Source: Bacilli bacterium (GTDB lineage: Bacteria > Bacillota_I > Bacilli_A > RF39 > UBA660). Taken from it: a stretch of 64,000 bases of DNA. The stretch lies in NCBI GenBank assembly GCA_017418945.1, contig JAFOMI010000040.1, positions 32 to 64,031 on the forward strand. Reading direction: 5' to 3'. Numbering within the stretch: position 1 is the stretch's first letter; each line of letters begins with the position of its first letter. The translations under genes were made by a program, and so were the position numbers. The notes under the pieces are model-generated. The model had not been told where the DNA came from, searched no databases, and saw only the letters and a program-made list of their open reading frames with translations. Below are positions 188 through 51,402 of this stretch, piece by piece.

Positions 188-1084
188 ATGTTAAGACAAT
201 TTAAAGGAATAAAATGGATAAATAATATTCCGAATTTTATTTTATATGATTATGAAAACAATATTATTGAATACAAAAAGGTTGAGGGAATTATAGATAT
301 AAAAAAAGAAGGTTTGAAAAAATGCAATGGGTATTATGATTTGGTTACACATAAATATGTTGTATGTCCAAATTTTAATAGTAGCGAATCAGATAATGTT
401 AAACAATGTGAAACATGTTCAAATATTACCGGATTTAATGAATGTCTTGGATGTGATGGTAAATATTGCAGAACTACTAATAGTATTGCAAAAGAATTTT
501 GTAATCAAAAACATGTTGTGTATATTGCTTTGTTTGGAAATAATAAATTTAAAGTTGGAACAGCAGCTGAATATAGAAAATATTCAAGAATACTTGAACA
601 AGGTGCTATAGCATCAATGTTTATTGCAGAAACACCAGATGGTAAACAGGCAAGATTTATAGAACATACAATATCAAAATTAGGATATGTACTTCAAGTG
701 AATTCATCGTTTAAATTGAAGAATTTAGTAATTGATAAGGATCGTATCGAAATTGAAAATATTTTAAAAAAACATTACAACAATATTATGAATGACATCC
801 CTGATGCTTTGAAAAAATTTTTAATTTCTCCCGAAATTAATTATTGTGAAAAAATTAATAAAATAAATAAAAGTATTTTTTCGGCAAATGATATGCAGTT
901 ATCTCTTCTTGAGGATAATATTGAAAACACATATGACATTAACTATTTGTTGCATTATGATAGTATATGTGGTAAAATAGCAAACGTTATTGGAACTTTT
1001 CTAGTAATAAAATCAAATAATGATTTTGTAATTTACGATACTAAAGAATTAGAGGGATGTATTGTAAAAATAAAATTAGGTTAG
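188..1084 (+). CDS. Cys-rich (zinc-ribbon-like) protein with a T5orf172/MUG113 GIY-YIG-like domain
   Basis: 298-aa ORF. Cysteine cluster CETC...CLGCDGKYC, followed by VYIALFGNNKFKVGTAAEYRKYSRILEQG and ARFIEHTISKLGY. This resembles the T5orf172 (GIY-YIG-like) pattern YKIGxT...RxxQL...AE..H..L. A 12-bp gap to the next ORF implies an operon. The domain call is from memory of the family consensus only. Confidence 0.5.
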   Translation: MLRQFKGIKWINNIPNFILYDYENNIIEYKKVEGIIDIKKEGLKKCNGYYDLVTHKYVVCPNFNSSESDNVKQCETCSNITGFNECLGCDGKYCRTTNSIAKEFCNQKHVVYIALFGNNKFKVGTAAEYRKYSRILEQGAIASMFIAETPDGKQARFIEHTISKLGYVLQVNSSFKLKNLVIDKDRIEIENILKKHYNNIMNDIPDALKKFLISPEINYCEKINKINKSIFSANDMQLSLLEDNIENTYDINYLLHYDSICGKIANVIGTFLVIKSNNDFVIYDTKELEGCIVKIKLG

Positions 1085-1095
1085 GGGAATTTTAA

Positions 1096-2133
1096 ATGTT
1101 TGATTATCACGGAATAGATTACAGTAGTATAGTTGATTTAGGTTATACAATGGCAACTTTTGAAAACCATTCGATGGGGCAATCACTTGAAAGATATATT
1201 GAAATGAAATTACAAGATATAATCTTTAGTGATTCAATATCAGAAATACGTGTTGTAGGTAATTATGATAGAACTAAAGGTATTTCTGTTAAAGAAAAAA
1301 ATGATAAAACTTTCAATTATAAGCGACCAACAGTTTTTGTGAATGGTGATGTTGCAACAATTAATTGTTATCCTGGTATGGATTATGTATATCATTATGC
1401 AAGTCTAGTAAAAACATATTTAGCTATATTAGGCATAAAAAAGAAAATTACAGTACAATTTCCTACAGTTCAACAAATTGAAAATCAATTAATGCGCTCT
1501 AATATAAATGAGATACCAAAATGTAAAACAGTAATATTAGGATATGTTCAAGGTTTTGAGTATTTGTCTAATACAGAAAATTGGCTTGGAACAGGAGATT
1601 TTTTGTGGAAGCAAATAACAGACGATAAAATATTAGTTGGTTGTAAGCATAGTTACTGGGGAGATATTGCTGGTTATATTGTTGCCGCATTAGCACGAAA
1701 AGGCGTAAAAAGAGTTATATATGTAGGAAAACTTGGAACATTAAACAAAAACTATGCACCAAATGAGACAATTGCTACAGGAAATAAAAGTATATTTATT
1801 GATGGTAGTTTTGTTGAATGGAATAATGTATTTGAAGATTTTAATTCTGATGCCATTAAGAATGGTATTCATTATACATTACCTAGTATAATTCAAGAAA
1901 CAAAAGAATGGGTTTTACAAAATAGAGAAGAAATTGCATTTGTTGATCCAGAAATTGGGCATATGGCTAAATCAGCAATGCAAAACGGAATTGATTATTC
2001 ATATTTACATATTATATCTGACAATTTATCAAAAAAATTCTCAGAAGACCTATCTAACGAAAGAAAAGAAGATGTCTTAATTAAAAGAAAAAAATTAATC
2101 AAGACAATAGGAAATTGCTTAATGGATATATAA
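1096..2133 (+). CDS. PNP/MTA-nucleosidase-fold (PNP_UDP_1-like) domain protein with an unassigned ~140-aa N-terminal region
   Basis: 345 aa. C-terminal half has ILVGCKHSYWGDIAGYIVAALARKGVKRVIYVGKLG, DPEIGHMAKSAMQNGI and LHIISDNL. These mirror the G-rich loop, the E..A motif and the terminal (I/V)SD motif of MTA/SAH nucleosidase and purine nucleoside phosphorylase fold proteins. The N-terminal ~140 aa was not recognised. Confidence 0.55.
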   Translation: MFDYHGIDYSSIVDLGYTMATFENHSMGQSLERYIEMKLQDIIFSDSISEIRVVGNYDRTKGISVKEKNDKTFNYKRPTVFVNGDVATINCYPGMDYVYHYASLVKTYLAILGIKKKITVQFPTVQQIENQLMRSNINEIPKCKTVILGYVQGFEYLSNTENWLGTGDFLWKQITDDKILVGCKHSYWGDIAGYIVAALARKGVKRVIYVGKLGTLNKNYAPNETIATGNKSIFIDGSFVEWNNVFEDFNSDAIKNGIHYTLPSIIQETKEWVLQNREEIAFVDPEIGHMAKSAMQNGIDYSYLHIISDNLSKKFSEDLSNERKEDVLIKRKKLIKTIGNCLMDI

Positions 2134-2136
2134 AAA

Positions 2137-2164
2137 CTGTGTATTTAAACACAGTTATTTTTTT
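2137..2164. terminator. Bidirectional intrinsic terminator between convergent genes
   Basis: Hairpin ctgtgt-atttaa-acacag (2137-2154) with an A-run before and T-run after. It sits between the + strand stop at 2133 and the - strand stop at 2145-2147. Confidence 0.5.
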
Positions 2165-2714
2165 CCATTACTAATTGAGGGTATCCTGCAAATATTTGTT
2201 TTCCAACTTTAATATTTAATTCTTCTATAGTATCCATAATATATTTCATACTATCATCCTCATTATCATATAAATTTGTTTTGAATTCTAATTCGATGAA
2301 ATCACCTAAATTTTCTATGGAATCAATTGATATAACAATATTATTATATTCGAATGAGTTTCTTTTTTTTTCAACAACTATTATTTGTTTGAAATCTAGT
2401 GCATCTAGCATTTCAATCATTCCGTTATAGTCATCTATTCCAATTTCAATTTCTTTACAAGAAATTTTATTATTACCATTATTATTACTCCAATTTTTGT
2501 AATTAATAGTTTTTTCTTCCTTTGTATCTCTTATTCTAAGCCATTCTGAAATAGGTTTTTTTTCAAGAAAATTCTCATGTGCTGGTGTATAATATATATC
2601 CTTTTGATAATTGTTTTCTTCAATTGTTTTACCTAATTCTTTTAATTTTGATATTGTTTCTTTTTTGTTATGTAAAGGAAATTTTGCTTCAATCTCAATT
2701 CTTTTTCTTTCCAT
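2145..2714 (-). CDS. CYTH-domain protein (class IV adenylyl cyclase CyaB / triphosphate-tunnel metalloenzyme family)
   Basis: N-terminal IEIEAKF matches the CYTH ExExK signature. The size (~189 aa from the internal start MERKRIEIEAKF, which has a GGAGG RBS; the ORF-track start at 2762 is less likely) is typical of CyaB-like proteins. Confidence 0.6.
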   Translation of the reverse strand: MERKRIEIEAKFPLHNKKETISKLKELGKTIEENNYQKDIYYTPAHENFLEKKPISEWLRIRDTKEEKTINYKNWSNNNGNNKISCKEIEIGIDDYNGMIEMLDALDFKQIIVVEKKRNSFEYNNIVISIDSIENLGDFIELEFKTNLYDNEDDSMKYIMDTIEELNIKVGKQIFAGYPQLVMEKNNCV

Positions 2715-2887
2715 ATCTTTACCTCCATATGAATTATATAATATTTTACTTTTTAAAGTCAATTAACTATAATCATAAATTCTAAAAATATATATTTGAA
2801 AAAAACTGTAATTAAAAAAATAAGATGTAATTAAATAGACTTGTATTTATTACTTCTAATTTCTTCAGTGCAGTTATTAAATTTAAC

Positions 2888-2975
2888 TTTTTTTGTTGCA
2901 ACTAACTAGATTTGTGGTAAATGTTCATACTGATATGTATTAATTCTTAATCGTTACTGAAAGTTGTAAATAATT
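2888..2975 (+). repeat. Copy A of a ~90-bp direct repeat carrying a sigma-A-type promoter plus conserved leader
   Basis: ttttttgTTGCAA-N16-TGgTAAATg followed by atactgatatgtattaattcttaatcgttactgaaagttgtaaataa. Aligns at about 85% identity with 3845-3943. It points into the 3' end of the convergent 2998-3822 gene. Confidence 0.6.
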
Positions 2976-2997
2976 ACTTGATTTATTTATAATATTA

Positions 2998-3822
2998 TTA
3001 TTGATATATTGCAATAGGAATTACAACAAATGCTGGACCCATTATTTTGTCTTTTATTTCTTTAGGATTGGACATATTTTTTTTAGATATCTGCCTTCTT
3101 TGTTCACGATTGATTGCCATTGATTTAACATCTTCAAATATTTCATCTAAGCATATACTATTTCCTTTTTCTATTTTCTTTTGAACTTTACATAGCATGT
3201 ATACTTGAGAAACAAAATTATCTTTAGATGTTTTTAAAAATGTTTTATCTATATTACCAATTAATGGATATTTTTTGTCTTCAAAGTTAAAAACACAGGA
3301 AAGTGAATTGTCATTTCTAGAATTAGATAACATTTGAAATCCATCTAAAGCCTCTTGTTCCTTTTCATCTATTATATTATTACCTAGAAAAGGTGCAAAT
3401 GCATCATATAGTTGTTTAAAACCATTTACAGCATTTGTTACTTCTTCTAATTTTGAAAAGCGTGGTGTTACTAAAACTTCAATAAAATCATCTCTATAAA
3501 TATTATCCCATATTTCTTGATTTATATTTTCATAATATTTTAATTCATCATTTTCTTTTAAATATTTAATTATTCTATCCAATTTACTTGCATCATTTAC
3601 TCTTGCATTTAATAATATTTTTTCTTCTTTTTGACTACCTAAGTTCCCTTCCATATTTGCTTTGGAAAATCCAACGCCTAGTTTTCCACCTTTATTAGTT
3701 GTTGAACTTTGTGTTATTTCTTGTTCTTCATAAATATATCCATCAATAATGGAAATATAATTGTCAAGTGCCTCAGTATCTGCATATAAAATTTTTCTAA
3801 GCATCTTTATCACCTCTGACAA
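2998..3822 (-). CDS. Hypothetical protein (274 aa) with a hydrophobic C-terminal tail (GPAFVVIPIAIYQ)
   Basis: Long ORF with an aggaGGTGAtaaagATG-type RBS upstream on the minus strand. No recognisable motif. Flanked by direct-repeat copies A and B. Confidence 0.6.
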   Translation of the reverse strand: MSEVIKMLRKILYADTEALDNYISIIDGYIYEEQEITQSSTTNKGGKLGVGFSKANMEGNLGSQKEEKILLNARVNDASKLDRIIKYLKENDELKYYENINQEIWDNIYRDDFIEVLVTPRFSKLEEVTNAVNGFKQLYDAFAPFLGNNIIDEKEQEALDGFQMLSNSRNDNSLSCVFNFEDKKYPLIGNIDKTFLKTSKDNFVSQVYMLCKVQKKIEKGNSICLDEIFEDVKSMAINREQRRQISKKNMSNPKEIKDKIMGPAFVVIPIAIYQ

Positions 3823-3844
3823 TATTCTATCATAAAATCAGCAC

Positions 3845-3952
3845 TTTTTTATTGCAATTAGTCAATTTTATGGTAAAATATTTATAGAGAATGATACTGA
3901 TATGTATTAATTCCTAATCGTGATGGAAAAGTTGTAAATAACTTAACCAATC
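3845..3952 (+). repeat. Copy B of the ~90-bp direct repeat (promoter plus conserved leader)
   Basis: ttttttaTTGCAA(3852-3857)-N16-TGgTAAAAT(3871-3879) followed by atgatactgatatgtattaattcctaatcgtgatggaaaagttgtaaataa. Same architecture as copy A. Confidence 0.6.
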
Positions 3953-3997
3953 GCTCCAGATTGATGAATAATACGAACTTATAGTTCGTTTTTTTTA
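3886..3997 (+). ncRNA. Candidate ~110-nt small RNA (promoter of repeat copy B to an intrinsic terminator)
   Basis: Near-consensus promoter (TTGCAA-16-TGgTAAAAT) with predicted TSS around 3886. Conserved leader, then hairpin acgaact-tat-agttcgt (3973-3989) plus T8 (3990-3997). No ORF with an RBS in between. The downstream CDS has its own RBS at 4041-4046. Confidence 0.4.
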
Positions 3998-4054
3998 TAC
4001 TTGAATAATAAGATTATGTTTGATAAAATATTTTTTATCAAGAGGGAAAACTAT

Positions 4055-4579
4055 ATGGGTTATTATAATAAAATGTTAGATTTATATTTTAAAGAAAAGA
4101 ATTATACAAAAGAAGAAATAGAAAAAATATTGGATGAAAATCCTTTTGATTCAAATTTTTCGCATTGGGAAAGTAATATATTATTTGAAGGTAAGTTATT
4201 TTCTAATTCTCTTAAGAAAAATGGAATTGTAGGTAGAGATGATTCTGTACAAGAATTAGTATTGTTTGATGAATTAGGTGTATGTAAGAATGTTACTAAT
4301 TATGTGGATTATATAAAGATAAATGATAATAATGTAAAAGGTACTAAAGTCGCTAAGAAAAAGGTAATATATAAAGGGCATTATGATGAAGAATATGAAT
4401 TTTTAAAATGCCTAGAATATAAAAGAATACCATTTGCTATTGGAATATGTACAAAAGATAAAGAATATTATAAAAGAATTTTAGAAATATATAAGTTTTA
4501 TTTATTAAAATTTAAAAATAGTAAAGTAATAGATGAAATAGATTATAATAGAGATATTTTAATATTTAAATCAAGATAA
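4055..4579 (+). CDS. Hypothetical protein (174 aa from the RBS-supported ATG)
   Basis: AGAGGG RBS 8 nt before the ATG at 4055 (MGYYNKMLDLYF...). The ORF track begins at a TTG at 4001 with no RBS. No recognisable domain. Confidence 0.55.
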   Translation: MGYYNKMLDLYFKEKNYTKEEIEKILDENPFDSNFSHWESNILFEGKLFSNSLKKNGIVGRDDSVQELVLFDELGVCKNVTNYVDYIKINDNNVKGTKVAKKKVIYKGHYDEEYEFLKCLEYKRIPFAIGICTKDKEYYKRILEIYKFYLLKFKNSKVIDEIDYNRDILIFKSR

Positions 4580-4601
4580 GGATTTTTTTTACATAAATGT
4601 A

Positions 4602-4629
4602 TTGATTAAAATAAAATTTATGGTAAAAT
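4602..4629 (+). promoter_or_regulatory. Promoter of the tRNA-Gly gene (TTGATT-N16-TGgTAAAAT)
   Basis: -35 TTGATT at 4602-4607 and extended -10 tggtaaaat at 4621-4629, about 12 nt before the tRNA 5' end. Shares the 17-nt string ttatggtaaaatattt with repeat copy B. Confidence 0.55.
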
Positions 4630-4640
4630 ATTTCTTGTAC

Positions 4641-4715
4641 GCAAGTGTAGTACAATGGTTAGTACGAGGCCTTGCCAAGGCTTAGACGAGAGTTCGATTC
4701 TCTTCACTTGCTCCA
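4641..4715 (+). tRNA. tRNA-Gly (anticodon GCC)
   Basis: Cloverleaf folded by hand: acceptor gcaagtg/cacttgc, D-arm gtac-aatggtta-gtac, anticodon stem aggcc/ggctt with loop ttGCCaa, T-arm gagag-ttcgatt-ctctt, discriminator T and encoded CCA. Confidence 0.85.
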
Positions 4716-4723
4716 AAAAAAGT

Positions 4724-4751
4724 TACTAGTCGGTTGACTAGTTTTTTTTTT
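4724..4751 (+). terminator. Intrinsic terminator after the tRNA (bidirectional-looking)
   Basis: Hairpin actagtc-ggtt-gactagt followed by T10, preceded by an A7 run. Confidence 0.7.
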
Positions 4752-4764
4752 GGAACAAGTTAAG

Positions 4765-4797
4765 CTTACTCTCGTCTAAGCTCTTTACTAACCATTG
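4765..4797 (-). repeat. Inverted, internally deleted partial copy of the tRNA-Gly gene
   Basis: The reverse complement caatggttagtaaagagcttagacgagagtaag matches the tRNA D-loop/D-stem (caatggttagta) and the variable/T-stem region (gcttagacgagag), with the anticodon arm missing. Confidence 0.55.
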
Positions 4798-4917
4798 AAA
4801 TTATTGCCTAAAAGTAATAATATCCTTTTTTTTGAACTTTTAATATAACTAATATTTATAATTGATTAAATATCAAAAAAAATATATAATAAAAATATAT
4901 AGTATAGAGGTGGTTAA

Positions 4918-5544
4918 ATGAAAAAGGTTAGAGAAGAGTATTTAAATGATAAAATTAATTATGATAAAAAGCAGTTAATTGGAATTGTTTCATTAATTAT
5001 TATATTTTCTGGTTTGTTTGGTTATGTTTATGAATTTATTTTTTATTATTTTAATGGTGGAATGAAAACTTTTTATATGCAAGGAGGTAATTTCTTACCA
5101 TGGATTAATATTTATGCGATAGGTGGTATTATTATTTTGATATTAACAAGTAAGTATAAAAAGAGTCCTTTTAATGTATTTTTTATTAGTTTAATATCAT
5201 CTCTTTTATTAGAATTTACATCTGGTTATATTTTAAATCATTTATTTGGATTAAGATTCTGGAATTATAATAATGAAATACTTAATTTTGGAAATGTAGG
5301 TGGATATATTTGTTTTAGAAGCGTTACTTTCTTTGGTATATCTGGTTTATTATTAATTTACTTCATTATTCCATTTTGTATTTATTTATCAAAAAAATTT
5401 AATCATAAAAAGTTTATGATATTATGCTTAATTATATTAAGTATAGTTTTATTAGATGAAGTTTATAATTTATTAATATGTAAGCTGTTTGATTTACCAT
5501 CTGCGATTAAAATATATAAAAGCTTAGGATTTAAATATGTATAA
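4918..5544 (+). CDS. Hypothetical polytopic membrane protein
   Basis: 208 aa with about 5-6 hydrophobic segments. RBS agaggtgg before the ATG. Confidence 0.6.
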   Translation: MKKVREEYLNDKINYDKKQLIGIVSLIIIFSGLFGYVYEFIFYYFNGGMKTFYMQGGNFLPWINIYAIGGIIILILTSKYKKSPFNVFFISLISSLLLEFTSGYILNHLFGLRFWNYNNEILNFGNVGGYICFRSVTFFGISGLLLIYFIIPFCIYLSKKFNHKKFMILCLIILSIVLLDEVYNLLICKLFDLPSAIKIYKSLGFKYV

Positions 5545-5557
5545 AAAAATAGTGAGA

Positions 5558-6907
5558 TTATTTTTTAATCTCACTATTTTTTAATGTTAAAGTCTTATTG
5601 TTATTTTTCATTTTTCCTTCATTATATAATTCTACTTCACTTACTAAGTCTAAAGGTTTATAATCTTTAATATTATTCTTTATTCTTTGAAGTTTTTCTT
5701 CTACATCACGAAGTGCGTAACTAAGACCTCTCATTTGTTTTTCTAGAGCAGGATTATTTGTATTTGAATTAAAGTATTTATCATCATGAAGAGCCCATGC
5801 ATCCATTACCATTGTTCTAACTATTACTTCCATTATAATAGGTTGAACATCATTTACCATAGGTATATTAAAGACTAAATTAATCTTATATCCTCTATAT
5901 CCAGATGGTTTTGGTTCAGCAAATCTATCACTTATACTTGTAATTTCTACATTATCCATTTTACCAATTTCTTGTTTAAATTGTTTTATAAAATCTAACG
6001 CAACTTTTTCATCTATACAAACTACTTTAAATCCAATAATATCGTGTATGTTTGTAATGATATCTTTAGCAGTACATGATAGTTTTCTCATTTTTAATTT
6101 TCTATTTATACTTGGTAAAGATTTTATTCTTGATGTTACATGAAGAATATCTCCTTTATTATCGTAATTTTTTATAAAAGTCTTTAAATCTTCATCAAAT
6201 TTATTATTTATGATTTGATAAAGGTGTCCTATTTTTTTATATTCTTCTTGTATTTTTTGTAATTCTTCATTACTTTGTTCTTCTTTATTAATACTTTCTT
6301 TTCTAATTAATTCATCTAATGCTTTATCATAGAAGAATAATTCATCACTAAGTTTTTTTAATTCATTTTTATCTTCTAAACTAGCATTACCTTTATAACT
6401 TAATTTATGTTCTTCTCTTGCGAATATATCCATGAATATAGTTCTTATTTGTATTTCTGCATAAACATAACTTATACCAGAAGATTTTTTTATTGGAACT
6501 TTTACAATAACGTGATATCCCATATATCCACTTTCTTTAGGGTCCTTGATATAATCTTTTATTTTTTCAATTTCAAAGTATTTAGTATTTTTTATTGTAT
6601 CAAGTACTTCTTTTGCATCAGTTAAGTTTAAACAAACTAATCTTACTCCAACAACATCACGTATATTATCGTAAGTTATATCTCTATTTTCTCTATTCAT
6701 TCTATCATTTATTTTATTTAAAAAACTATTTTCTTTTTTTATTCTTTCACTTTGATAGGCAACTTTATCTTTAATACCTTCGTTTTTTAATTTTTCCATT
6801 ATTTCTAAAAGATTATTTAAGGCATTAATATTATTTTCTTTTTCATATCTATAACGCACTAACTCTGATAATAGTTTTTCTTTTCTTTCATCAGTTAATG
6901 TAGCCAT
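5558..6907 (-). CDS. Tandem two-domain RelA/SpoT-family nucleotide pyrophosphokinase (duplicated small-alarmone-synthetase-like domains)
   Basis: Domain 1: DVVGVRLVC ... DYIKDPKESGYMGYH ... AEIQIRTIFMDIFAREEHKLSYK. Domain 2: DIIGFKVVC ... AEPKPSGYRGYK ... MEVIVRTMVMDAWALHDDKYF. Both match the RelQ/RelP synthetase motifs D..G.R, PK.SGY and (I/V)Q(I/V)RT..M..WA. Start taken at the RBS-supported MATLTDE (AGAGGG); the ORF track extends to 6991. Confidence 0.75.
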   Translation of the reverse strand: MATLTDERKEKLLSELVRYRYEKENNINALNNLLEIMEKLKNEGIKDKVAYQSERIKKENSFLNKINDRMNRENRDITYDNIRDVVGVRLVCLNLTDAKEVLDTIKNTKYFEIEKIKDYIKDPKESGYMGYHVIVKVPIKKSSGISYVYAEIQIRTIFMDIFAREEHKLSYKGNASLEDKNELKKLSDELFFYDKALDELIRKESINKEEQSNEELQKIQEEYKKIGHLYQIINNKFDEDLKTFIKNYDNKGDILHVTSRIKSLPSINRKLKMRKLSCTAKDIITNIHDIIGFKVVCIDEKVALDFIKQFKQEIGKMDNVEITSISDRFAEPKPSGYRGYKINLVFNIPMVNDVQPIIMEVIVRTMVMDAWALHDDKYFNSNTNNPALEKQMRGLSYALRDVEEKLQRIKNNIKDYKPLDLVSEVELYNEGKMKNNNKTLTLKNSEIKK

Positions 6908-6993
6908 TTTATCCCTCTTTTCGAAGTGAAGATAATATATCACTTTTTTGGTTAAAAAGCAAATTTTTAAAAAAAAGAAGTAAATTTTCATAT

Positions 6994-7767
6994 TTACTTC
7001 TTAATTATCTCTTTAACTTTTTGAACAGCACCTTGAGTATTTTTTTCTCCAAATGCTTGTAATACTTCGATTGGAATTGCAAATATTATTGTATTTGATT
7101 GATCTGATGATAAATCGTTTAAAGTAGCTAATGTTCTTAAATGTAATGCACCTGGTGAATTACTAAGTACATTAGCAGCTTTAGCTAAATTATCTGCAGC
7201 TTCTTTTTCACCTTTAGATTTAGTAATAACTGCTTCTTTTTCTCTTTCAGCTTCTGCAACTTTTGCAATAACTCTTTGCATTTCTTCTGGTAATTTAACA
7301 TCTTTTAATTCAACATTTTCAACTTTAATTCCCCAAGGATCAGTTGCTTCATCAATTACTTTACATATTTCAGTTGATATTTTATCTCTTTCTGATAATA
7401 ATTCATCTAGTGAAACAGCACCAACTGCATTTCTCATTGTAGTTTGTGCAAGTTGTCCAACAGCATATTGATATCTTTCAACAGCAAGAATTGCTTTAGA
7501 TGCATCAAATACTTTATAGTAAATAACTGCATTAATTCTAATAGATACATTATCTTTAGTAATTGCATCTTGTTCAGGAACATCAACTGCTTTTGTTCTT
7601 ATATCAACTTTTTTGTATGATTCTATGATAGGTAATACTAAATTCCAACCTGGTTTCATAATTCTTTTGAATTTACCAAATCTAAATTTAATACCTCTTT
7701 CATATTCAGATACTTGTCTTATTGATATAAGTATAATAAATATAATAATTCCTATAATAATTTTCAT
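6994..7767 (-). CDS. SPFH/band-7 (stomatin/prohibitin-like) membrane protein
   Basis: N-terminal TM helix, then the SPFH core (IRTKAVDVPEQDAITKDNVSIRINAVIYYKV ... WGIKVENVELKDVKLPEEMQ) and an A/E-rich coiled-coil tail. Confidence 0.85.
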   Translation of the reverse strand: MKIIIGIIIFIILISIRQVSEYERGIKFRFGKFKRIMKPGWNLVLPIIESYKKVDIRTKAVDVPEQDAITKDNVSIRINAVIYYKVFDASKAILAVERYQYAVGQLAQTTMRNAVGAVSLDELLSERDKISTEICKVIDEATDPWGIKVENVELKDVKLPEEMQRVIAKVAEAEREKEAVITKSKGEKEAADNLAKAANVLSNSPGALHLRTLATLNDLSSDQSNTIIFAIPIEVLQAFGEKNTQGAVQKVKEIIKK

Positions 7768-7832
7768 ATAATTTCCTCCCTAATATTATTATATTTTTTT
7801 TAAAATAAAAAATCAATAATACGTGTTGAAAA

Positions 7833-8405
7833 ATGAAAAATTATAATATATACTTTTTTATAGAAGGTGTAGTTGATATGTTTAAATTCGATTTTATAAA
7901 CTTAAAATATATATTCATTTCTATAATATCGTTATTAATAATATTTATAGTTATGATGATTTCTTGGTATAAACTTTTTAAAAAAGCTGGTAAAAAAGGT
8001 TATATAGCATTTATTCCTTTTTATAATATTTGGACATTATTTGAAATAGGTAATGTTAAGGGATTTTATTCTTTATTAATATTAATTCCATTATTAGGAT
8101 TATTAATATTTATTATACTTTATTATAAAGCATTAGTAGAAATAGTAAGAAGATTAGATAAGAATAAAGTTCTTGCAATTTTATGTATATTTTTTCCTAT
8201 ATTTATTTATCCATATTTAGGATTTTCTTCATCAATTTATGAGGTTAAACCTGTTGTTAAGGAAACTAGTATTTTAGATATTGATTTAGAAGGTGTTATT
8301 GAAGATAAAGAATTTAATTATGGTTATGAAAAAGAAGATACTGAGGTAATGAAACCTATTAAGAAAAAAACAGGTAATAAAAAGAAAACAACTAAAAAGA
8401 AATAA
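7833..8405 (+). CDS. Hypothetical membrane protein with a K-rich C-terminal tail
   Basis: Three to four hydrophobic segments. The C-terminus is GNKKKTTKKK. Confidence 0.6.
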   Translation: MKNYNIYFFIEGVVDMFKFDFINLKYIFISIISLLIIFIVMMISWYKLFKKAGKKGYIAFIPFYNIWTLFEIGNVKGFYSLLILIPLLGLLIFIILYYKALVEIVRRLDKNKVLAILCIFFPIFIYPYLGFSSSIYEVKPVVKETSILDIDLEGVIEDKEFNYGYEKEDTEVMKPIKKKTGNKKKTTKKK

Positions 8406-8408
8406 TTA

Positions 8409-8969
8409 TTATTTCTTTTTTTTGTTTTCATACATTTCATATAATCTTTTAAATCTTTCAAAGTGTATTATTTCTCTTTGTCTTAAAAAAGATAGGGGAG
8501 ATAGTATATCTTTATCATCTGTTAAATCCATTAGATTTTCATAAGTTGCTCTTGCTTTTTGTTCTGCTGCCATATCTTCCATAATATCTGCAATAGGATC
8601 TCCAGTTACTGCAAAGTAAGCTGCATTAAAAGGTATTCCATCAGCATTCATAGGATATACTGCATTTTTATGTTCTGTATACCAAGATGCTAATCCTTCT
8701 TTTTCTAGTTCCTTAACACTAGCTCCTTCTAGTAATTGATAAACCATGGCACTTATTATTTCCATATGTGCAAATTCTTCGGTAGCGATATCTGTTAATT
8801 CACTTTTTCCATAATCATCAGGCATAGTATATCTTTGATTTAAATATCTAAGTGCAGCCCCAAGTTCTCCATTAGGTCCCCCTGTTTGAGTAATAATATA
8901 TTTTGCCATCTTTACATTTTTGTTTTTTATATTTACAGGAAACTGTAACTTTTTTTCATATTTCCACAT
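8409..8969 (-). CDS. cotJC: Spore coat protein CotJC (manganese-catalase family)
   Basis: MWKYEKKLQFPV...GGPNGELGAALRYLNQRYTMPD...IADIMEDMAAEQKARATY is nearly collinear with Bacillus CotJC. Start set at MWKYEKK (AAAGGA RBS); the ORF track extends 24 nt further and would overlap cotJB. Confidence 0.85.
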   Translation of the reverse strand: MWKYEKKLQFPVNIKNKNVKMAKYIITQTGGPNGELGAALRYLNQRYTMPDDYGKSELTDIATEEFAHMEIISAMVYQLLEGASVKELEKEGLASWYTEHKNAVYPMNADGIPFNAAYFAVTGDPIADIMEDMAAEQKARATYENLMDLTDDKDILSPLSFLRQREIIHFERFKRLYEMYENKKKK

Positions 8970-8971
8970 AG

Positions 8972-9343
8972 TTAAATCCTTTCCCAAGGCCAAGGTGATT
9001 TTACCCAGTCCCAGTTATAACTTTCATTTATATCTAAAGTAATTTTTCCATATCTAGATTCATATTCTTTTTGTAATCTATTTTCTTCTTCCTTATATTG
9101 ATTATATAATCCAATTGCTTGAAGATCATCTGGATATAAATCTAAATATAGATTCATTTCATGCGCTGCGAAACAATATTTCATTATTTCAATAAGTAGT
9201 TCTTCTTTTGGATTATTACTACTTACATTTGCAATATATTTATATGGAGAAAATAAGTTATCAAACATATTACCTCTATTAAATCCTTCACTAACACTTA
9301 CTAGTTTATTATTAGTTGATAGATTATCATACATTTTTATCAT
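8972..9343 (-). CDS. cotJB: Spore coat protein CotJB-like (start uncertain; longer than typical CotJB)
   Basis: AHEMNLYLDLYPDD...YNQY...YESRYGKITL matches the CotJB (F/Y)LDTHP(D/H)D ... YGPL pattern. Adjacent to and co-oriented with cotJC. The 123-aa ORF may carry an N-terminal extension, or the true start may be the internal MFDNLFS. Confidence 0.7.
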   Translation of the reverse strand: MIKMYDNLSTNNKLVSVSEGFNRGNMFDNLFSPYKYIANVSSNNPKEELLIEIMKYCFAAHEMNLYLDLYPDDLQAIGLYNQYKEEENRLQKEYESRYGKITLDINESYNWDWVKSPWPWERI

Positions 9344-9428
9344 TCCTTTCCATATATATTATGATAAAAGCCCTTAATACTTATAGTTAAAAAGCCTAAT
9401 ATATGTTAAAATATTTCTAGGTGATTTT

Positions 9429-10622
9429 ATGGATAGAATAATTATGCATATTGATGTTAATTCAGCTTTTTTATCTTGGTCATCATTAAAATTATTAAGT
9501 GAAGGTTCTAATATAGATTTAAGAAATGAAATAGCAGTAGTTTCAGGAAAAGAAGAAAGTAGACATGGAATAGTTGTCGCATCTTCTATTCCTGCTAAAA
9601 AAATAGGAATTAAATCTCCTATGAATTTAAGAGATGCAAGAAGAATATATAAAGATTTAATTGTAACTCATGCGGATAAGGAATATTATAAAAAATGTTC
9701 TAATAATATGATGAAATTAATAAAATATTTATTTCCAAAATATGAACAATATTCAATAGATGAATGCTTTGTTGATTATACTGAAATGAAAAAATTATAT
9801 GGTGATGAAGTTAAATTTGCGCATAAATTAAAAGATGAAATATATAAAAGATTTGGTTTTACTGTTAATGTTGGAATAGGAAATAATAAGTTGCTTGCAA
9901 AAATGGCAAGTGATTTTGAAAAACCAAATAAAGTTCATACTTTGTATAAAAGTGAGATAAAAGAAAAAATGTGGCCTTTAAAAGTTGGAGATTTATTTAT
10001 GGCAGGAAAAGCTGCATCTATGAAATTAAATGAACTTGGAATTAATACAATAGGTGATTTGGCAAATTATGATCAAAATAAATTAATTAAAGTTTTAAAA
10101 AATCAAGGTAAAATGCTATATGAATACGCTAATGGAATAGATGATTCACCTGTAATAAATAGATATGATGATAGAAAAGGAATTGGTTTTTCAAAAACTT
10201 TAGAAGAAGATACAATAGAAAAAAATGTTATTTATAATAATTTAAGAAACTTTTCAAATAGAATCTCATTAGAATTAAAGAAGAGAAATTTATATGCTTC
10301 AACCTTAGTAGTAACAATAAGATATTCTTCTTTTAAGACATATAATCATCAAATTAAATTTGAAAATAATACAAATTTAGAAGAAGAAATATTTAATTTA
10401 TCAAAAATTGCTTTTAATAAACTATGGAATTTTGAACCAATTAGATTAATTGGACTTAGAGTTACAGATATATCATCAAATAATGATATTCAATTATCTT
10501 TATTTGATGAAAATAATAAAGTATTAAAAGATAAAGAGATAGATAAATTAATAGATTCTATTAATAAAGAATTTGGAACTGGTACTGTTTTTAAAGGTTT
10601 TAAAAATATTGATAGTAATTAA
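9429..10622 (+). CDS. dinB: Y-family DNA polymerase (DinB/Pol IV-like)
   Basis: IMHIDVNSAFLSWS (the Y-family hDxDaFFasvE-type motif) and the little-finger-region pattern. Confidence 0.8.
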   Translation: MDRIIMHIDVNSAFLSWSSLKLLSEGSNIDLRNEIAVVSGKEESRHGIVVASSIPAKKIGIKSPMNLRDARRIYKDLIVTHADKEYYKKCSNNMMKLIKYLFPKYEQYSIDECFVDYTEMKKLYGDEVKFAHKLKDEIYKRFGFTVNVGIGNNKLLAKMASDFEKPNKVHTLYKSEIKEKMWPLKVGDLFMAGKAASMKLNELGINTIGDLANYDQNKLIKVLKNQGKMLYEYANGIDDSPVINRYDDRKGIGFSKTLEEDTIEKNVIYNNLRNFSNRISLELKKRNLYASTLVVTIRYSSFKTYNHQIKFENNTNLEEEIFNLSKIAFNKLWNFEPIRLIGLRVTDISSNNDIQLSLFDENNKVLKDKEIDKLIDSINKEFGTGTVFKGFKNIDSN

Positions 10623-10660
10623 AATTTAAATAAAAAATATAATTAATAAGGAGGTTTATT

Positions 10661-10867
10661 ATGGATGAAATAAAAGATGATTATGAACTAATAATAAGAG
10701 AAGAGTATACTACAGATAAACCTGATTATATAATGTCTAAATTAAATGAGTTATATCCTAAAGAAGAAGGATTCTGGGTATTAAGTGAAACAGAAAATGT
10801 AAATAAAAAATGTAAAAAATTATATATAGATATATTTAAAGAAAATAAAAAAAGGAAAACATTTTAA
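10661..10867 (+). CDS. Small hypothetical protein (68 aa)
   Basis: AAGGAGG RBS. Followed by hairpin aaaacattttaaaatgtttt plus a T-run. Confidence 0.5.
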   Translation: MDEIKDDYELIIREEYTTDKPDYIMSKLNELYPKEEGFWVLSETENVNKKCKKLYIDIFKENKKRKTF

Positions 10868-10907
10868 AATGTTTTTTTATTTGTTATAATAACTTATGGT
10901 GAGTAAA

Positions 10908-13043
10908 ATGAATAATGAAATAATAAATGAAATAGCAAAGGAATTAGGTATTAAAGATATACAAGTTTCTAAAACATTAGAGATGCTTGAAGAAGGAAAT
11001 ACAATTCCATTTATCGCAAGATATAGAAAAGAAGTTACAGGTAACCTTGATGAAGATAAGATTAAATCGATATCTGATGTTTATGAATATCAAGTTAATT
11101 TATTAAAAAGAAAAGAAGATGTTATTAGATTAATTGATGAAAAAGGTTTATTAACAGATGAATTAAAGAGTCAAATAATGAAGGCAGAAAAGTTAGTAGA
11201 TGTTGAAGATATTTATAGACCATATAAAGAAAAGAAGAAAACAAAAGCAACTGAAGCAATTAAATATGGATTAGAACCACTTGCAAAAATAATATTATCT
11301 TTTCCAGATACTTTATATGTAGATAAGTTTATTAATGAAAATGTTAAGAGTGAAAAAGATGCTATACAAGGAGCTATGTATATAATCGCAGAATATATTT
11401 CTGATAATGCATATTATAGAAAATGGATTAGAAATTTTACTTTTAAAACAGGTAAAATAAAGTCTAAAATAAAGAAAAATTCAGTAGATGAAAAGAAAGT
11501 ATATGAAATGTATTATGATTATGATGAAGAAGTTAAATTTATTAAACCTCATAGAGTACTTGCGCTAAATAGAGGAGAAAAAGAAAATGTACTTTCTGTT
11601 TCTATTGAAGTAGATAAGAATAAGATTTTTGAATATTTAGAAAATAAAATGATAAAAAAAGAAAATGAATGCGCAGGATATGTAAGAGAATCAATTAAAG
11701 ATAGTTATGCTAGATTAATTGGTCCATCTATTGAAAGAGAAATTAGAAGTGAACTTAGTGAAAAAGCAGGAGATACTGCGATTGAAAACTTCGGTAAGAA
11801 TTTAGAAAGCTTACTTTTACAACCCCCAATTAAAAATAAAAGAGTACTTGCGTTTGATCCAGGATATACTAATGGGTGCAAACTAGCATGCCTAGATGAA
11901 ACAGGTAAATATTTATATTCATGTGTTATAAAACCATTCGCATCATCTGAAAAAGAATTCATTAATTCTAAAAATACATTATTAAAATTAATTAAAGAAT
12001 ATAAAATAGATATAGTTTCTATTGGTAATGGAACTGCATCAAGAGAATCTGAAAAATTAATTGCAGATTTAATAAAAGAATTTAATTTAGATACAAAATA
12101 TATTATTGTAAGTGAAGCAGGTGCATCAATTTATAGTACAGAAAAAGTAGCGCAAGAAGAATTTCCAAATCTTTCTCCAAATGAAAGAAGTGCAGTTTCA
12201 ATTGGAAGAAGACTTCAAGATCCACTTGCGGAACTTGTTAAAATTCCACCTGATGGAATGGGGGTAGGTTTATATCAACATGATGTATCTAATACTAAAT
12301 TAAAAGATAGATTAGATTTCGTTGTAGAAAAGAGTGTTAATACAGTTGGTGTTAATATAAATACTGCATCTTCTTCAATATTAAAATATATTTCTGGTTT
12401 AACAAAAAAATCTATAGATAAAATAATGGAATATAGAGAAGAAAATGGTAAATTTAAATCAAGAGAAGAATTAAAGAAGAAAAAGATTTTATCAGACAAG
12501 GTTTATGAACAAGCAATTGGTTTTATGAGAATAATAGATGGTGATAATGTTCTAGATAAGACATCTATCCACCCAGAAAGTTATGATATTACGTTAAAAC
12601 TACTTAGTTTAGTAGGTTTAACTTTAAATGATATTGGAACAGAAAAATTAATAACAAAACTAGATAATATTAATATAGATTCTATGTCTAAAGAATTAAA
12701 TATAGATATATATACTTTAGAAGATATAATTAATTCATTAAAGAAACCAAATAGAGATCCAAGAGATGAACTTCCAAAGCCATTACTAAAAAGTAATGTA
12801 CTTGATATTAATGATTTAGAAAAAGGAATGAAATTAGAAGGAACTGTTAGAAATGTTGTAGACTTTGGTGCGTTTATTGATATTGGACTTCATAATGATG
12901 GACTAGTTCATATATCAGAGATATCAGATACTTTTATTAAACATCCAAGTGATGTATTGTCAGTTGGTGATATAGTAACAGTATATGTTAAAGAAATATT
13001 TAAAGATAAAGAAAAAGTTGCTTTAACTATGAAAGAAGAATAG
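10908..13043 (+). CDS. tex: Transcription accessory protein Tex (YqgF/HhH/S1 domains)
   Basis: IPFIARYRKEVTGNLDE near the N-terminus and a C-terminal S1 domain (GTVRNVVDFGAFIDIGLHNDGLVHISEIS). Start at the second ATG, which has a GGTGAG RBS. Confidence 0.85.
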   Translation: MNNEIINEIAKELGIKDIQVSKTLEMLEEGNTIPFIARYRKEVTGNLDEDKIKSISDVYEYQVNLLKRKEDVIRLIDEKGLLTDELKSQIMKAEKLVDVEDIYRPYKEKKKTKATEAIKYGLEPLAKIILSFPDTLYVDKFINENVKSEKDAIQGAMYIIAEYISDNAYYRKWIRNFTFKTGKIKSKIKKNSVDEKKVYEMYYDYDEEVKFIKPHRVLALNRGEKENVLSVSIEVDKNKIFEYLENKMIKKENECAGYVRESIKDSYARLIGPSIEREIRSELSEKAGDTAIENFGKNLESLLLQPPIKNKRVLAFDPGYTNGCKLACLDETGKYLYSCVIKPFASSEKEFINSKNTLLKLIKEYKIDIVSIGNGTASRESEKLIADLIKEFNLDTKYIIVSEAGASIYSTEKVAQEEFPNLSPNERSAVSIGRRLQDPLAELVKIPPDGMGVGLYQHDVSNTKLKDRLDFVVEKSVNTVGVNINTASSSILKYISGLTKKSIDKIMEYREENGKFKSREELKKKKILSDKVYEQAIGFMRIIDGDNVLDKTSIHPESYDITLKLLSLVGLTLNDIGTEKLITKLDNINIDSMSKELNIDIYTLEDIINSLKKPNRDPRDELPKPLLKSNVLDINDLEKGMKLEGTVRNVVDFGAFIDIGLHNDGLVHISEISDTFIKHPSDVLSVGDIVTVYVKEIFKDKEKVALTMKEE

Positions 13044-49314: not shown

Positions 49315-51402
49315 ATGATAGAAAACTTAAACGAAAGACAATTAGAGGCCGTACAAAACATAGATGGACCAATGCTTGTACTTGCAGGTGCAGGTTCTGG
49401 TAAAACAAGAGTTTTGACAACAAAAGTTATGTACCTTTTAGAACATAGAGATATTTCTCCAAGAAATATTTTAGCGATAACTTTTACTAATAAAGCTGCT
49501 AAAGAAATGAAGGAAAGAATTTATAATTTAATTGGTAGAGAAGCTTTTTTAATACAAATATCAACATTCCATTCATTTGGATTAAAATTATTAAAAGAAA
49601 ATTATGAATTACTTGGTTATGATAGCAATTTTACTATAATAGATGCTGATGATTCATTAACAATGATTAAGAAAATAATGAAAGAATTAGATATAGATTC
49701 TAATAAATATAATTATAGAGCAATTAGATCTAGTATTTCAGATAATAAAAATGAAATGGTTTCAGTAAAAGAATATGAAAAATTTGTTTATACTGATTAT
49801 GATGAAGTAGTATATAAAGTATATGATGAATATGAAAAAAGTTTAAAAAGAAGTAATGCAATAGATTTTGATGATTTACTTTTATTACCAATAAAGTTAT
49901 TTAATGAACATGAAGATGTTTTAATTAAATATCAAGATTTATATAAATATGTATTTATAGATGAGTATCAAGATACTAATAAACCTCAATATTTATTAAG
50001 TAAAATGATAAGTGGAAAATACAAGAATATTACTGTTGTTGGAGATAATGACCAAGCAATATTTACTTGGAGAGGTGCAGATTATAAAAATATATTAAAT
50101 TTTGAAAAAGATTATCCTAATGCGAAAGTAGTTATATTAGATGAAAATTATCGTTCTACTAAAACTATTTTAAAAGCAGCGAATAATGTTATTAAGAATA
50201 ATAAAATTAGAAAAGAAAAGAATTTATGGACTAATAATGAAGAGGGTAATTTAATAAAATATTATAAAGCATATGATGAAAAAGATGAATCTAGTTTTGT
50301 TGTTAAAGAAACAAAAAAATTAATTAGTGAAGGAATAAGTCCTGATGAAATATGTGTTTTATATAGAGCAAATGCTCAAAGTAGAAATGTTGAAGAAGCA
50401 TTCTTGCAAAATAATATTTCATATAAAATAGTTGGTTCTTATGCATTCTATAATAGAAAAGAAATTAAAGATTTAATTGCGTATTTAAAACTAATTCATA
50501 ATGAAAAAGATGATGTTTCTTTACTTAGAGTTATTAATTATCCAAAAAGAGGAATAGGTCAAAAAACAATAGAAAATTTAAGTATAGTAGGAAGAAATGA
50601 AAATAAGTCTTTATATGAATCAATTACGTCTAATAAAGAATTAGAATTTAAAAATATAATAGAAGCATTAAAAAAAGAAAAAGATTCAATGCCTTTAGTA
50701 GATTTTATTGAACTTGTTTTAAATAAAACTGGTATTAAAGAAAGTCTTAAAAGTGAAAAAACTCTAGAAGCAGATATTAGACTTGAAAACTTAGAGGAAT
50801 TTAAGTCAATTGCGCACAATGCTGAAGAAGTTAGTGGAATAGTAACATTAGAAGATTTTTTAGATGAAATTAGTTTAGTAACTGATGCATCTGAAAATCA
50901 AAGTGATAATGAAGAAAAGGTTACTTTAATGACTATGCATGCAGTTAAGGGACTTGAATTTGATTATGTATTTGTAGTAGGAGTAGAAGAAGGATTATTT
51001 CCTCATTTAAATTCTATGAATAGTGAAGAAGAACTTGAAGAAGAAAGAAGACTTTGTTATGTTGCTATTACAAGAGCTAGAAAGAAACTATATATAATTA
51101 ATTCTAGAAGTAGATTATTGTATGGTAAAGTAACAAGTAATATACCTAGTAGATTTATATCTGAAATAGGTGATGATTTATTAGATCAAGAAAGAAAAGA
51201 TAATGTTTTCTCTAAGAAAATTAATAGAGAAGATATGATTACTAATAATGATTTAAAAAGAGGAGATTTAATAAGACACGATAAATATGGAAATGGTGTT
51301 GTTATTGATATAGATGGAAAAATTGCAACTATTTCATTTACAAAAGAAGGCGTTAAGAAATTATTAAAAGATCATAAAGCAATAAAGAAAGTGAGTGAGT
51401 AA
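49315..51402 (+). CDS. pcrA: ATP-dependent DNA helicase PcrA (UvrD family)
   Basis: LNERQLEAV...GPMLVLAGAGSGKTRVLT (motif I), DEYQDTN (motif II), VGDNDQAIFTWRGA, TMHAVKGLEFDYVFV. Start at the ATG after the GGAGGA RBS. Confidence 0.93.
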   Translation: MIENLNERQLEAVQNIDGPMLVLAGAGSGKTRVLTTKVMYLLEHRDISPRNILAITFTNKAAKEMKERIYNLIGREAFLIQISTFHSFGLKLLKENYELLGYDSNFTIIDADDSLTMIKKIMKELDIDSNKYNYRAIRSSISDNKNEMVSVKEYEKFVYTDYDEVVYKVYDEYEKSLKRSNAIDFDDLLLLPIKLFNEHEDVLIKYQDLYKYVFIDEYQDTNKPQYLLSKMISGKYKNITVVGDNDQAIFTWRGADYKNILNFEKDYPNAKVVILDENYRSTKTILKAANNVIKNNKIRKEKNLWTNNEEGNLIKYYKAYDEKDESSFVVKETKKLISEGISPDEICVLYRANAQSRNVEEAFLQNNISYKIVGSYAFYNRKEIKDLIAYLKLIHNEKDDVSLLRVINYPKRGIGQKTIENLSIVGRNENKSLYESITSNKELEFKNIIEALKKEKDSMPLVDFIELVLNKTGIKESLKSEKTLEADIRLENLEEFKSIAHNAEEVSGIVTLEDFLDEISLVTDASENQSDNEEKVTLMTMHAVKGLEFDYVFVVGVEEGLFPHLNSMNSEEELEEERRLCYVAITRARKKLYIINSRSRLLYGKVTSNIPSRFISEIGDDLLDQERKDNVFSKKINREDMITNNDLKRGDLIRHDKYGNGVVIDIDGKIATISFTKEGVKKLLKDHKAIKKVSE

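Follow-up and report, generated by a model that had tools for sequence, protein, structure and literature searches.

A tandem small alarmone synthetase with a conventional N-terminal and a derived C-terminal domain in uncultured gut Bacilli

Introduction

Small alarmone synthetases (SAS) are usually seen as single-domain enzymes that are regulated by homo-oligomerization, as in RelQ and RelP, or by antitoxins, as in the toxic SAS (toxSAS). Published classifications of the RSH superfamily (RelA/SpoT homologs) handle them as single-domain proteins (Atkinson et al. 2011, PMC3153485; Jimmy et al. 2019, 10.1101/575399). The gene considered here encodes two synthetase domains in one chain of 449 amino acids (aa). 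It lies in a stretch of 64,000 nucleotides (nt) from a Bacilli bacterium (assembly GCA_017418945.1, contig JAFOMI010000040.1, positions 32 to 64,031 of the forward strand), called the window below, and it follows a gene for an SPFH (stomatin-like) protein.

The locus raises the question of what the second synthetase copy does. Both copies may be enzymes, the protein may be a toxic antiphage effector tied to its SPFH neighbor, or one copy may have become a regulatory part of the other. With slightly more confidence than doubt, we favor an answer of the last kind, namely a chromosomal and vertically inherited protein in which a putatively active N-terminal (p)ppGpp synthetase is fused to a derived pseudo-synthetase C-domain with a predicted regulatory role. 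The product of the N-domain, the inactivity and regulatory role of the C-domain, and the packing of the two as a pseudo-dimer are what we infer from sequence.

Two synthetase domains in one protein

The gene and its parts occupy the following positions in the window.

5558..6907, minus strand: tandem small alarmone synthetase gene (open reading frame, ribosome-binding site, NCBI protein and a two-stretch Pfam RelA_SpoT match; 449 aa plus stop)
6764..6907, minus strand: N-terminal helices, residues 1-48 (AlphaFold2 helices 6-21 and 23-48; the second helix is RelP helix alpha-1)
6383..6763, minus strand: N-domain core, residues 49-175 (active site of the canonical SAS type; RelP 6fgk match, E 8.5e-24)
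6149..6382, minus strand: inter-domain helices, residues 176-253 (AlphaFold2 helices 177-202 and 213-247; dip in predicted local distance difference test, pLDDT, at 201-210)
5768..6148, minus strand: C-domain core, residues 254-380, a derived SAS (motif table and residue counts; 6fgk match, E 1.5e-16; ratio of nonsynonymous to synonymous substitution rates, dN/dS, 0.25-0.36)
5561..5767, minus strand: C-terminal helices, residues 381-437, followed by a basic, disordered tail (AlphaFold2 helices 386-411 and 421-437; pLDDT below 50 at 439-449)

The protein belongs to the SYNTH domain of the RSH superfamily by both the Pfam threshold and the alpha/beta nucleotidyltransferase-like SAS fold. Pfam RelA_SpoT (PF04607) scores 128.2 bits against a gathering cut-off of 27 and matches in two separate stretches, and the two halves are 32% identical to each other (E 2e-14). 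Searched alone, each domain finds Bacillus subtilis RelP (6fgk) as the best crystal-structure sequence, at the E-values listed above; the corresponding match to CapRel, at E 7e-4, is far weaker than that of RelP. An AlphaFold2 model built with 42 homologs (pLDDT 89.1; predicted template-modeling score, pTM, 0.82) shows a complete SAS fold for each domain, with long helices connecting the two. Foldseek places SaRelP and BsRelQ at the top for this model (E about 1e-13 to 2e-13, target TM 0.79-0.83, about 190 columns), whereas CapRel and FaRel2 rank far below (FaRel2 at E 4e-6). The double architecture proposed in the original prediction therefore stands, and its suggestion that the fused copies act as a pseudo-dimer would be compatible with the two-domain model.

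The open reading frame taken mechanically (5558-6991, minus strand) is longer, at 477 aa, and its first ATG lies inside the SPFH terminator and promoter region. This candidate start at 6991 was rejected because the frame overlaps those signals and is not in the protein collection, and because homologs begin with MATLT. The true start is the ATG at 6907, preceded by a GAGGG ribosome-binding site at 6913-6917, and in alignments the homologous starts coincide with it. The resulting 449-aa product is identical to NCBI MBQ1496241.1, a 'hypothetical protein' from a 'Bacilli bacterium' metagenome-assembled genome on a 66.5-kb contig.

Outside the two cores, the protein is mostly helical. Residues 30-194 align with SaRelP residues 52-218, and about 48 helical residues precede the first strand, part of them corresponding to RelP helix alpha-1; the coiled N-terminal region of some 95 aa described originally is thus about half that length. 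The inter-domain segment consists of helix alpha-5 of the first domain, a short low-confidence linker (residues ~203-212) and helix alpha-1 of the second. A 2CompARG (PF22545) match over this helical linker reached 21.5 bits, below the cut-off of 27, and was taken as noise. At the other end, most family members share a recurrent basic K-x-L-x-L or K(K/T)-L-x-L terminus (window 5561-5600, residues ~437-449), with KTLTLK, KKLTLQ, KKLVLK and KKLIIE as examples. The terminus may act as a short motif for docking or for degradation.

An intact and an altered active site

Residue roles were transferred onto both domains from the published structures of SaRelP, RelSeq and FaRel2. In SaRelP, the adenine of ATP is pi-stacked by R78 and R112, Mg2+ is held via D107 and E174, and the phosphates are bound by K80, S84, K88 and R91 (PMC5794853). 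In RelSeq, R241 and R269 sandwich the adenine and the guanine stacks on Y308 (PMC7983052), while FaRel2 contacts adenine through R64, R95, Q147 and G93 (PMC11782079). The adenine-stacking arginine is highly conserved among active RSH synthetases (PMC7983052, PMC5794853). The two domains compare as follows.

First sandwich Arg and phosphate binders: N-domain R55, K57, S61, K65; C-domain R260, K262, S266, K270
Mg2+ ligand, Asp of DxxGxR: N-domain D84; C-domain D289
Adenine-stacking Arg of DxxGxR: N-domain R89; C-domain K294 (substituted)
G-loop: N-domain K124, G127, Y128; C-domain K333, G336, Y337
His after the G-loop Tyr: N-domain H132; C-domain K341 (substituted)
Mg2+ ligand, Glu of ExQ: N-domain E151; C-domain E360
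Adenine-contacting Gln of ExQ: N-domain Q153; C-domain I362 (substituted)

The RelP/RelQ active-site set (RxKx3Sx3K, DxxGxR, G-loop Tyr then His, ExQxRT) is complete in the N-domain and incomplete in the C-domain, where the motifs read DIIGFK, SGYRGYK and EVIVRT. In solved structures, two of the three substituted signature positions, the DxxGxR arginine and the ExQ glutamine, are in contact with the adenine of donor ATP. The original prediction had credited each copy with every motif of a complete synthetase. This description fits the N-domain, save that it reads MDIFA where 'WA' was expected, and fails for the C-domain at K294, K341 and I362. The proposed check by domain profiles and catalytic residues accordingly returned two domains, with full residue conservation in the first one only.

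These differences hold across the closest relatives. Motif tabulation and residue counts over 34 sequences define a group that includes the window protein and is called clade A here. Within it, 15 of the 16 N-domain positions checked are invariant, and G87 is either G or A; R55, K57, S61, K65, D84, R89, K124, G127, Y128, H132, E151, Q153, R155 and T156 are each found in 34 of 34 sequences. The C-domain is invariant at K262, S266, K270, D289, K333, G336, Y337, E360 and R364. Its substitutions are just as uniform, with lysine at position 294 in 34 of 34 sequences, lysine at 341 in 33 of 34, and leucine or isoleucine at 362 in all 34. The N-cores share a mean pairwise identity of 0.57 and the C-cores one of 0.53, and dN/dS, calculated against two relatives, falls in the same range for both cores (0.25-0.36). 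Purifying selection acts on both domains with similar constraint.

Distribution and descent of the tandem family

The family is small. A word-indexed search recovered about 55 clusters (90% identity) of proteins of 410-480 aa that span both domains; almost all are metagenomic, and the few named ones are 'hypothetical protein [Bacilli bacterium]'. An exhaustive profile search over 1.84 billion representatives returned 9,533 SAS-like proteins at E ≤ 1e-10, among which full-length tandem proteins make up only about 50 clusters (50% identity). The tandem family comes almost entirely from uncultured, very AT-rich (low-GC) gut Bacilli. A tblastn search of 50,697 phage and 72,556 plasmid records yielded no tandem homolog, and all matches were at most 741 nt long, which corresponds to one domain. 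No description of tandem or double SYNTH domains was found in the literature, of which coverage was incomplete.

Sequences outside clade A outline a graded series. The more distant tandem proteins, referred to as clade B, have the canonical R, H and Q in the N- and C-domain alike. Three intermediates (P0150, P0155 and P0164) carry GFK in the C-domain, that is, the R-to-K exchange, with H and Q still present. In one sub-clade (P0018, P0020, P0023, P0025 and P0031), the C-domain bears the additional changes R260G and G292R. Degeneration has gone furthest in this sub-clade; its C-domain keeps the G-loop and both acidic residues, and the window protein lies outside it.

In a neighbor-joining tree of 294 domains, the clade-A N-domains form one group and the clade-A C-domains another, and the same intermediates appear as sisters of each. 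Because the sister intermediates are shared, the tree suggests a single duplication, after which the contacts to the donor adenine were lost step by step. The tree is distance-based and carries no support values, and its resolution does not extend to the relations among clade B and single-domain SAS. In the subfamily placement that the original prediction had proposed as a check, sequence and fold put both domains closer to RelP/RelQ than to CapRel/FaRel. No stand-alone C-type domain was seen among the profile-search candidates; those that had looked like one proved to be pieces of tandem proteins or single-domain SAS of the canonical kind.

Transcription signals and genomic context

Four further features frame the synthetase gene.

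6908..6966, minus strand: promoter-like block and short leader (from sequence; conserved across ten loci)
6969..7002, minus strand: terminator-like hairpin (A/T-rich stem of 11 bp with a loop of 6, then a T run; the stop codon of SPFH lies in the overlap)
6994..7767, minus strand: SPFH/Band_7 gene, the upstream neighbor (PF01145, E 1.7e-41; NCBI name 'slipin family protein')
4918..5544, plus strand: CmpB-like membrane-protein gene (PF06541 by Pfam), which converges on the synthetase 3' end

As originally described, the SPFH gene precedes the synthetase gene in the same orientation, and 86 nt separate them. The hairpin at the end of the SPFH gene has a centroid fold of -9.9 kcal/mol (z -2.5); with under three G-C pairs in its stem, it escaped a simple terminator scan. 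An analogous, stronger hairpin follows the SPFH gene at the P0006 locus (L087). The predicted promoter comprises AAATTTGCTT (with a -35-like TTGCTT at 6957-6962), a 17-nt spacer, an extended -10 element TGATATATT (6934-6942), a leader and the GAGGG site. Across the family, the block reads AAATTTGCTT-N17-TG(A/G)TATA(T/G)TA (TGRTATAKTA), followed by a short leader and a GGGG-type ribosome-binding site. It is near-invariant in ten loci (window, L081, L084, L085, L087, L088, L089, L090, L097 and L098) that have six different upstream arrangements and encode proteins 38-84% identical. Since the block is conserved despite these six arrangements, the synthetase appears to carry its own predicted promoter wherever it is located. 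The hairpin and this promoter together make an obligate operon with the SPFH gene unlikely, while read-through would be possible.

The leader, CGTT..AAAAGGGG, is also almost invariant upstream of the tandem SAS in the ten loci. Intergenic conservation of this strength is unusual, and the conserved stretch could include a regulator site. No other exact match to the promoter block occurs in the window, where one-mismatch matches to a 13-mer number 6 against about 2 expected. An Rfam scan found no riboswitch or leader near the synthetase gene, only the tRNA-Gly and an unrelated small RNA (sRNA). Elsewhere in the window, 51012-51110 (plus strand) matches RF03531 (n00280, a Clostridioides difficile sRNA inside a helicase gene) at 69.5 bits against a gathering score of 65.2.

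Twelve distinct gene contexts of tandem synthetases were read, with identities given relative to the window protein; Hpt stands for histidine phosphotransferase.

Window, P0002 (84%) and P0006 (58%): tandem SAS between SPFH and a convergent CmpB-like gene
P0010 (50%): PASTA/Ltp lipoprotein upstream
P0014 (48%): UvrB upstream in divergent orientation; PcsB/FtsX/FtsE downstream
P0013, P0017, P0034, P0038 and P0020 (38-48%): 118-aa Hpt-like and 133-aa receiver genes upstream, with DUF2179 and OGG on the downstream side
Clade B members: MreB, ECF transporter, TruA, RluB-like and PBP5, or dCMP deaminase and nitroreductase

An Exo_endo_phos gene is also among the varying neighbors across relatives. 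The neighborhoods are core-chromosomal and differ between relatives. Across those read, there was no resemblance to a toxin-antitoxin pair, a prophage or a defense island, and the survey together with Pfam detected neither a small partner gene conserved among the loci nor a zinc-finger-like antitoxin domain fused to the synthetase. SPFH adjacency occurs in 3 of the 12 contexts, all at least 58% identical (window, P0002 and P0006), and is absent from the other nine, in a sample that is small and phylogenetically clustered. In a GTDB scan with the pattern EIQ[LI]RT.., an SPFH gene was found within 10 kb of 0 of 80 single-domain RelP/Q-like SAS loci among the matches listed. The SPFH gene is a lineage-specific neighbor and a functional partnership is not supported; the co-conservation check of the pairing proposed in the original prediction came out negative.

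The SPFH protein of the window (6994-7767) and the SPFH fragment on the P0006 contig (L087 1-522) are about 90% identical, whereas the adjacent tandem SAS reach just 58%. By these figures, the synthetase evolves much faster than its neighbor. In the five Hpt-receiver loci, the pair is located at L084 5160-5924, L085 5157-5917, L089 5180-5940, L090 5180-5940 and L098 3583-4346, and the Hpt-like protein carries the motif HSIKSDSKYLG.

The surroundings of the gene had been taken for a tRNA-adjacent accessory region. A tRNA-Gly(GCC) is indeed present at 4641-4715, about 850 bp from the synthetase gene, and the accessory part of the description does not hold. The SPFH, synthetase and CmpB-like genes are collinear with related contigs, and the synthetase gene has a GC content of 23.6% versus a window mean of 23.8%, a composition that is native rather than foreign. 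Collinearity with the P0002 contig is interrupted by an insertion sequence (rve; near window 8405) and a KilA-N/HTH insertion (near 3985) in that contig. Synteny of the CmpB-like gene is limited to close relatives that also keep SPFH. A DUF5684 gene, identified by Pfam, is divergent from the SPFH gene.

Two further observations concern the flank beyond the tRNA. The segment 545-4002 (DUF2797, 345-aa, CYTH and DUF6414 genes) is 98.3% identical to L081, compared with 88-90% in the collinear flanks within 545-11564, and this difference suggests a recent exchange of the segment. Its CYTH-domain (triphosphate tunnel metalloenzyme) gene, at 2145-2762 on the minus strand and about 3 kb from the synthetase, was called by Pfam via the L081 ortholog; no link between it and the alarmone synthetase was established.

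Competing explanations

The original prediction pointed to toxSAS and phage defense, and in this vein the protein could be an antiphage effector that works with the SPFH scaffold in an accessory island. The adjoining SPFH gene, the nearby tRNA and the differing gene content that a related contig shows past the tRNA would fit such a role, as would a match to the PADLOC candidate PDC-S33 (E 1e-33). However, ordinary single-domain GTP pyrophosphokinases, taken as a control, match PDC-S33 equally well. The match therefore reflects the domain only and was dropped as evidence of defense. The remaining observations run the same way: SPFH is adjacent in a quarter of the contexts, with the hairpin and the synthetase-linked promoter intervening, and is missing near the single-domain SAS loci; sequence and fold are nearest to RelP/RelQ rather than CapRel or FaRel2; the GC content is native; the survey found neither an antitoxin-like partner nor a fused sensor domain; and the phage and plasmid records hold no tandem homolog. 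A defense role is highly improbable on this evidence. A phosphorelay offers another possible context, in which the tandem synthetase would be the output, the Hpt-like and receiver proteins would act by contact, and the pair would have been lost or relocated in the window lineage. The pair (Hpt-like, 118 aa, PF01627 at E 1e-5 to 8e-5, near the cut-off; receiver, 133-134 aa) lies upstream at five loci with 38-48% identity, even though the genes farther upstream differ among them, and a receiver-SAS fusion protein exists (P0112, 334 aa). These neighbors and P0112 hint at phosphorelay control of SAS enzymes. For the tandem protein of the window, such a scheme is decidedly unlikely, as the pair is neither beside the gene nor within the 64 kb, where the sole, weak receiver-domain match is at 62371-62703. 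Moreover, two unrelated genes separate the pair from the SAS gene in L098, the SAS gene retains its own predicted promoter in the Hpt-receiver loci, and synteny common to related genomes may reflect inheritance instead of function.

The closest contest concerns the chemistry of the C-domain. Both domains could be catalytic if the C-domain used a non-ATP donor or another acceptor and made a second product, for example pGpp or (p)ppApp. In favor of such an enzyme, the C-domain conserves D289 and E360 as ligands of Mg2+, R260, K262, S266 and K270 as binders of phosphate, and K333, G336 and Y337 in the G-loop. The invariance of the substituted residues K294 and K341 themselves suggests a new constrained function rather than decay, the purifying selection on the C-domain equals that on the N-domain, and clade B has fully canonical motifs in both copies. 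Yet the lost arginine is the adenine-stacking one that active RSH synthetases conserve so highly, no precedent for a non-ATP donor was found in the literature covered, and the sub-clade without the other stacking arginine and the DxxG glycine still keeps its C-domain, which fits a non-catalytic role better. Catalysis by both domains is rather unlikely on balance. A bolder alternative, which we regard as possible though doubtful, treats the C-domain as a new RSH module. It would be a nucleotide or alarmone sensor acting in cis to gate the N-domain, a hard-wired version of the pppGpp allostery of RelQ, coupled to the Hpt-receiver pair in most clade-A lineages, or else a pyrophosphotransferase with a non-adenine donor. 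As a sensor, it would be a pseudo-synthetase with pockets for phosphate, metal and guanine and without one for the adenine of ATP.

The explanation favored here, an active N-domain joined to a pseudo-synthetase, would work as follows. The tandem gene would have arisen through internal duplication of a RelP/RelQ-type enzyme. The N-domain is predicted to be a conventional Mg2+-dependent ATP:GTP/GDP 3'-pyrophosphotransferase that makes (p)ppGpp. The C-domain retains the fold, the basic residues that bind the triphosphate, both acidic residues for the metal and the tyrosine of the G-loop, and has lost the residues that hold adenine, with DxxGxR Arg turned into Lys, ExQ Gln into Ile or Leu, and the second stacking Arg gone as well in one sub-clade. 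Because the adenine-holding residues are lost, the standard reaction is most likely no longer performed there. The C-domain would instead serve as a built-in partner subunit that packs on the active domain like the neighboring subunit in RelP/RelQ tetramers, and it may bind a guanine nucleotide or alarmone and so tune activity. Transcription would start from the gene's own conserved sigma-A-like promoter, with SPFH as a lineage-specific neighbor. Several points weigh against this explanation. The strict conservation of D289, E360, K262/S266/K270 and Y337 is what a still-catalytic C-domain would be expected to show, lysine can partly substitute for arginine, and selection at a dN/dS of about 0.35 is rather loose by the standard of core enzymes. 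The protein has the look of a housekeeping or regulatory enzyme; the term 'housekeeping' draws on neighborhood and phylogenetic affinity alone, and the pseudo-dimer packing of the N- and C-domains is a proposal that comes from the predicted model.

Significance

A conserved family of fused double SAS would add a new regulatory architecture to the stringent-response toolkit. Its C-domain, which progressively loses the contacts to the adenine of ATP and nonetheless stays under selection, would be the synthetase counterpart to the dead hydrolase of RelA. The family also provides a natural series for donor-binding residues, from canonical motifs in both domains through R-to-K and K/K/L to the stage at which the second arginine is gone too. 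For a small family confined to uncultured, very AT-rich gut Bacilli, the practical consequence is modest. The function of the tandem protein is probably still (p)ppGpp synthesis; the protein is not a new class of system and is of moderate interest to specialists in the stringent response.

Comparison with known systems

The nearest known systems are RelP and RelQ. Each domain of the tandem protein has their fold and is closest to them in sequence, and the N-domain carries the full set of RelP active-site residues. RelP and RelQ have a single domain, measure 210-230 aa and assemble into homotetramers, whereas the tandem protein fuses two copies in 449 aa. Unlike RelP and RelQ, its second copy is without the adenine-stacking Arg, the ExQ Gln and the His after the G-loop. 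On the NCBIfam RelQ equivalog NF053588, the tandem protein scores 155.6 bits, below the cut-off of 320. A dual-domain SAS is also reported from Mycobacterium smegmatis, in which the extra domain is said to be an RNase HII and not a second synthetase.

The gamma-proteobacterial RelA presents a parallel of another kind, in that a catalytic domain, duplicated or retained, has lost catalytic residues and persists in a structural or regulatory capacity (Atkinson et al. 2011, PMC3153485). It is the hydrolase that is dead in RelA, which also carries ribosome-binding C-terminal domains. In the tandem protein, the altered domain is a second synthetase, and TGS or ACT-type domains are absent.

The toxSAS (CapRel, FaRel, FaRel2, PhRel and Tas1) have the RelA/SpoT synthetase fold in common with the tandem protein, and CapRel further resembles it as a single chain with a fused C-terminal regulatory domain. 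The fused domain of CapRel is a pseudo-zinc-finger with a YXXY motif (PMC11782079), whereas that of the tandem protein is a second SAS domain. In addition, toxSAS genes belong to prophages or to bicistronic toxin-antitoxin loci that are conserved (Jimmy et al. 2019, 10.1101/575399), and the tandem gene does not. Taken system by system, the tandem protein is closest to RelP and RelQ in fold and sequence, and its altered domain recalls RelA.

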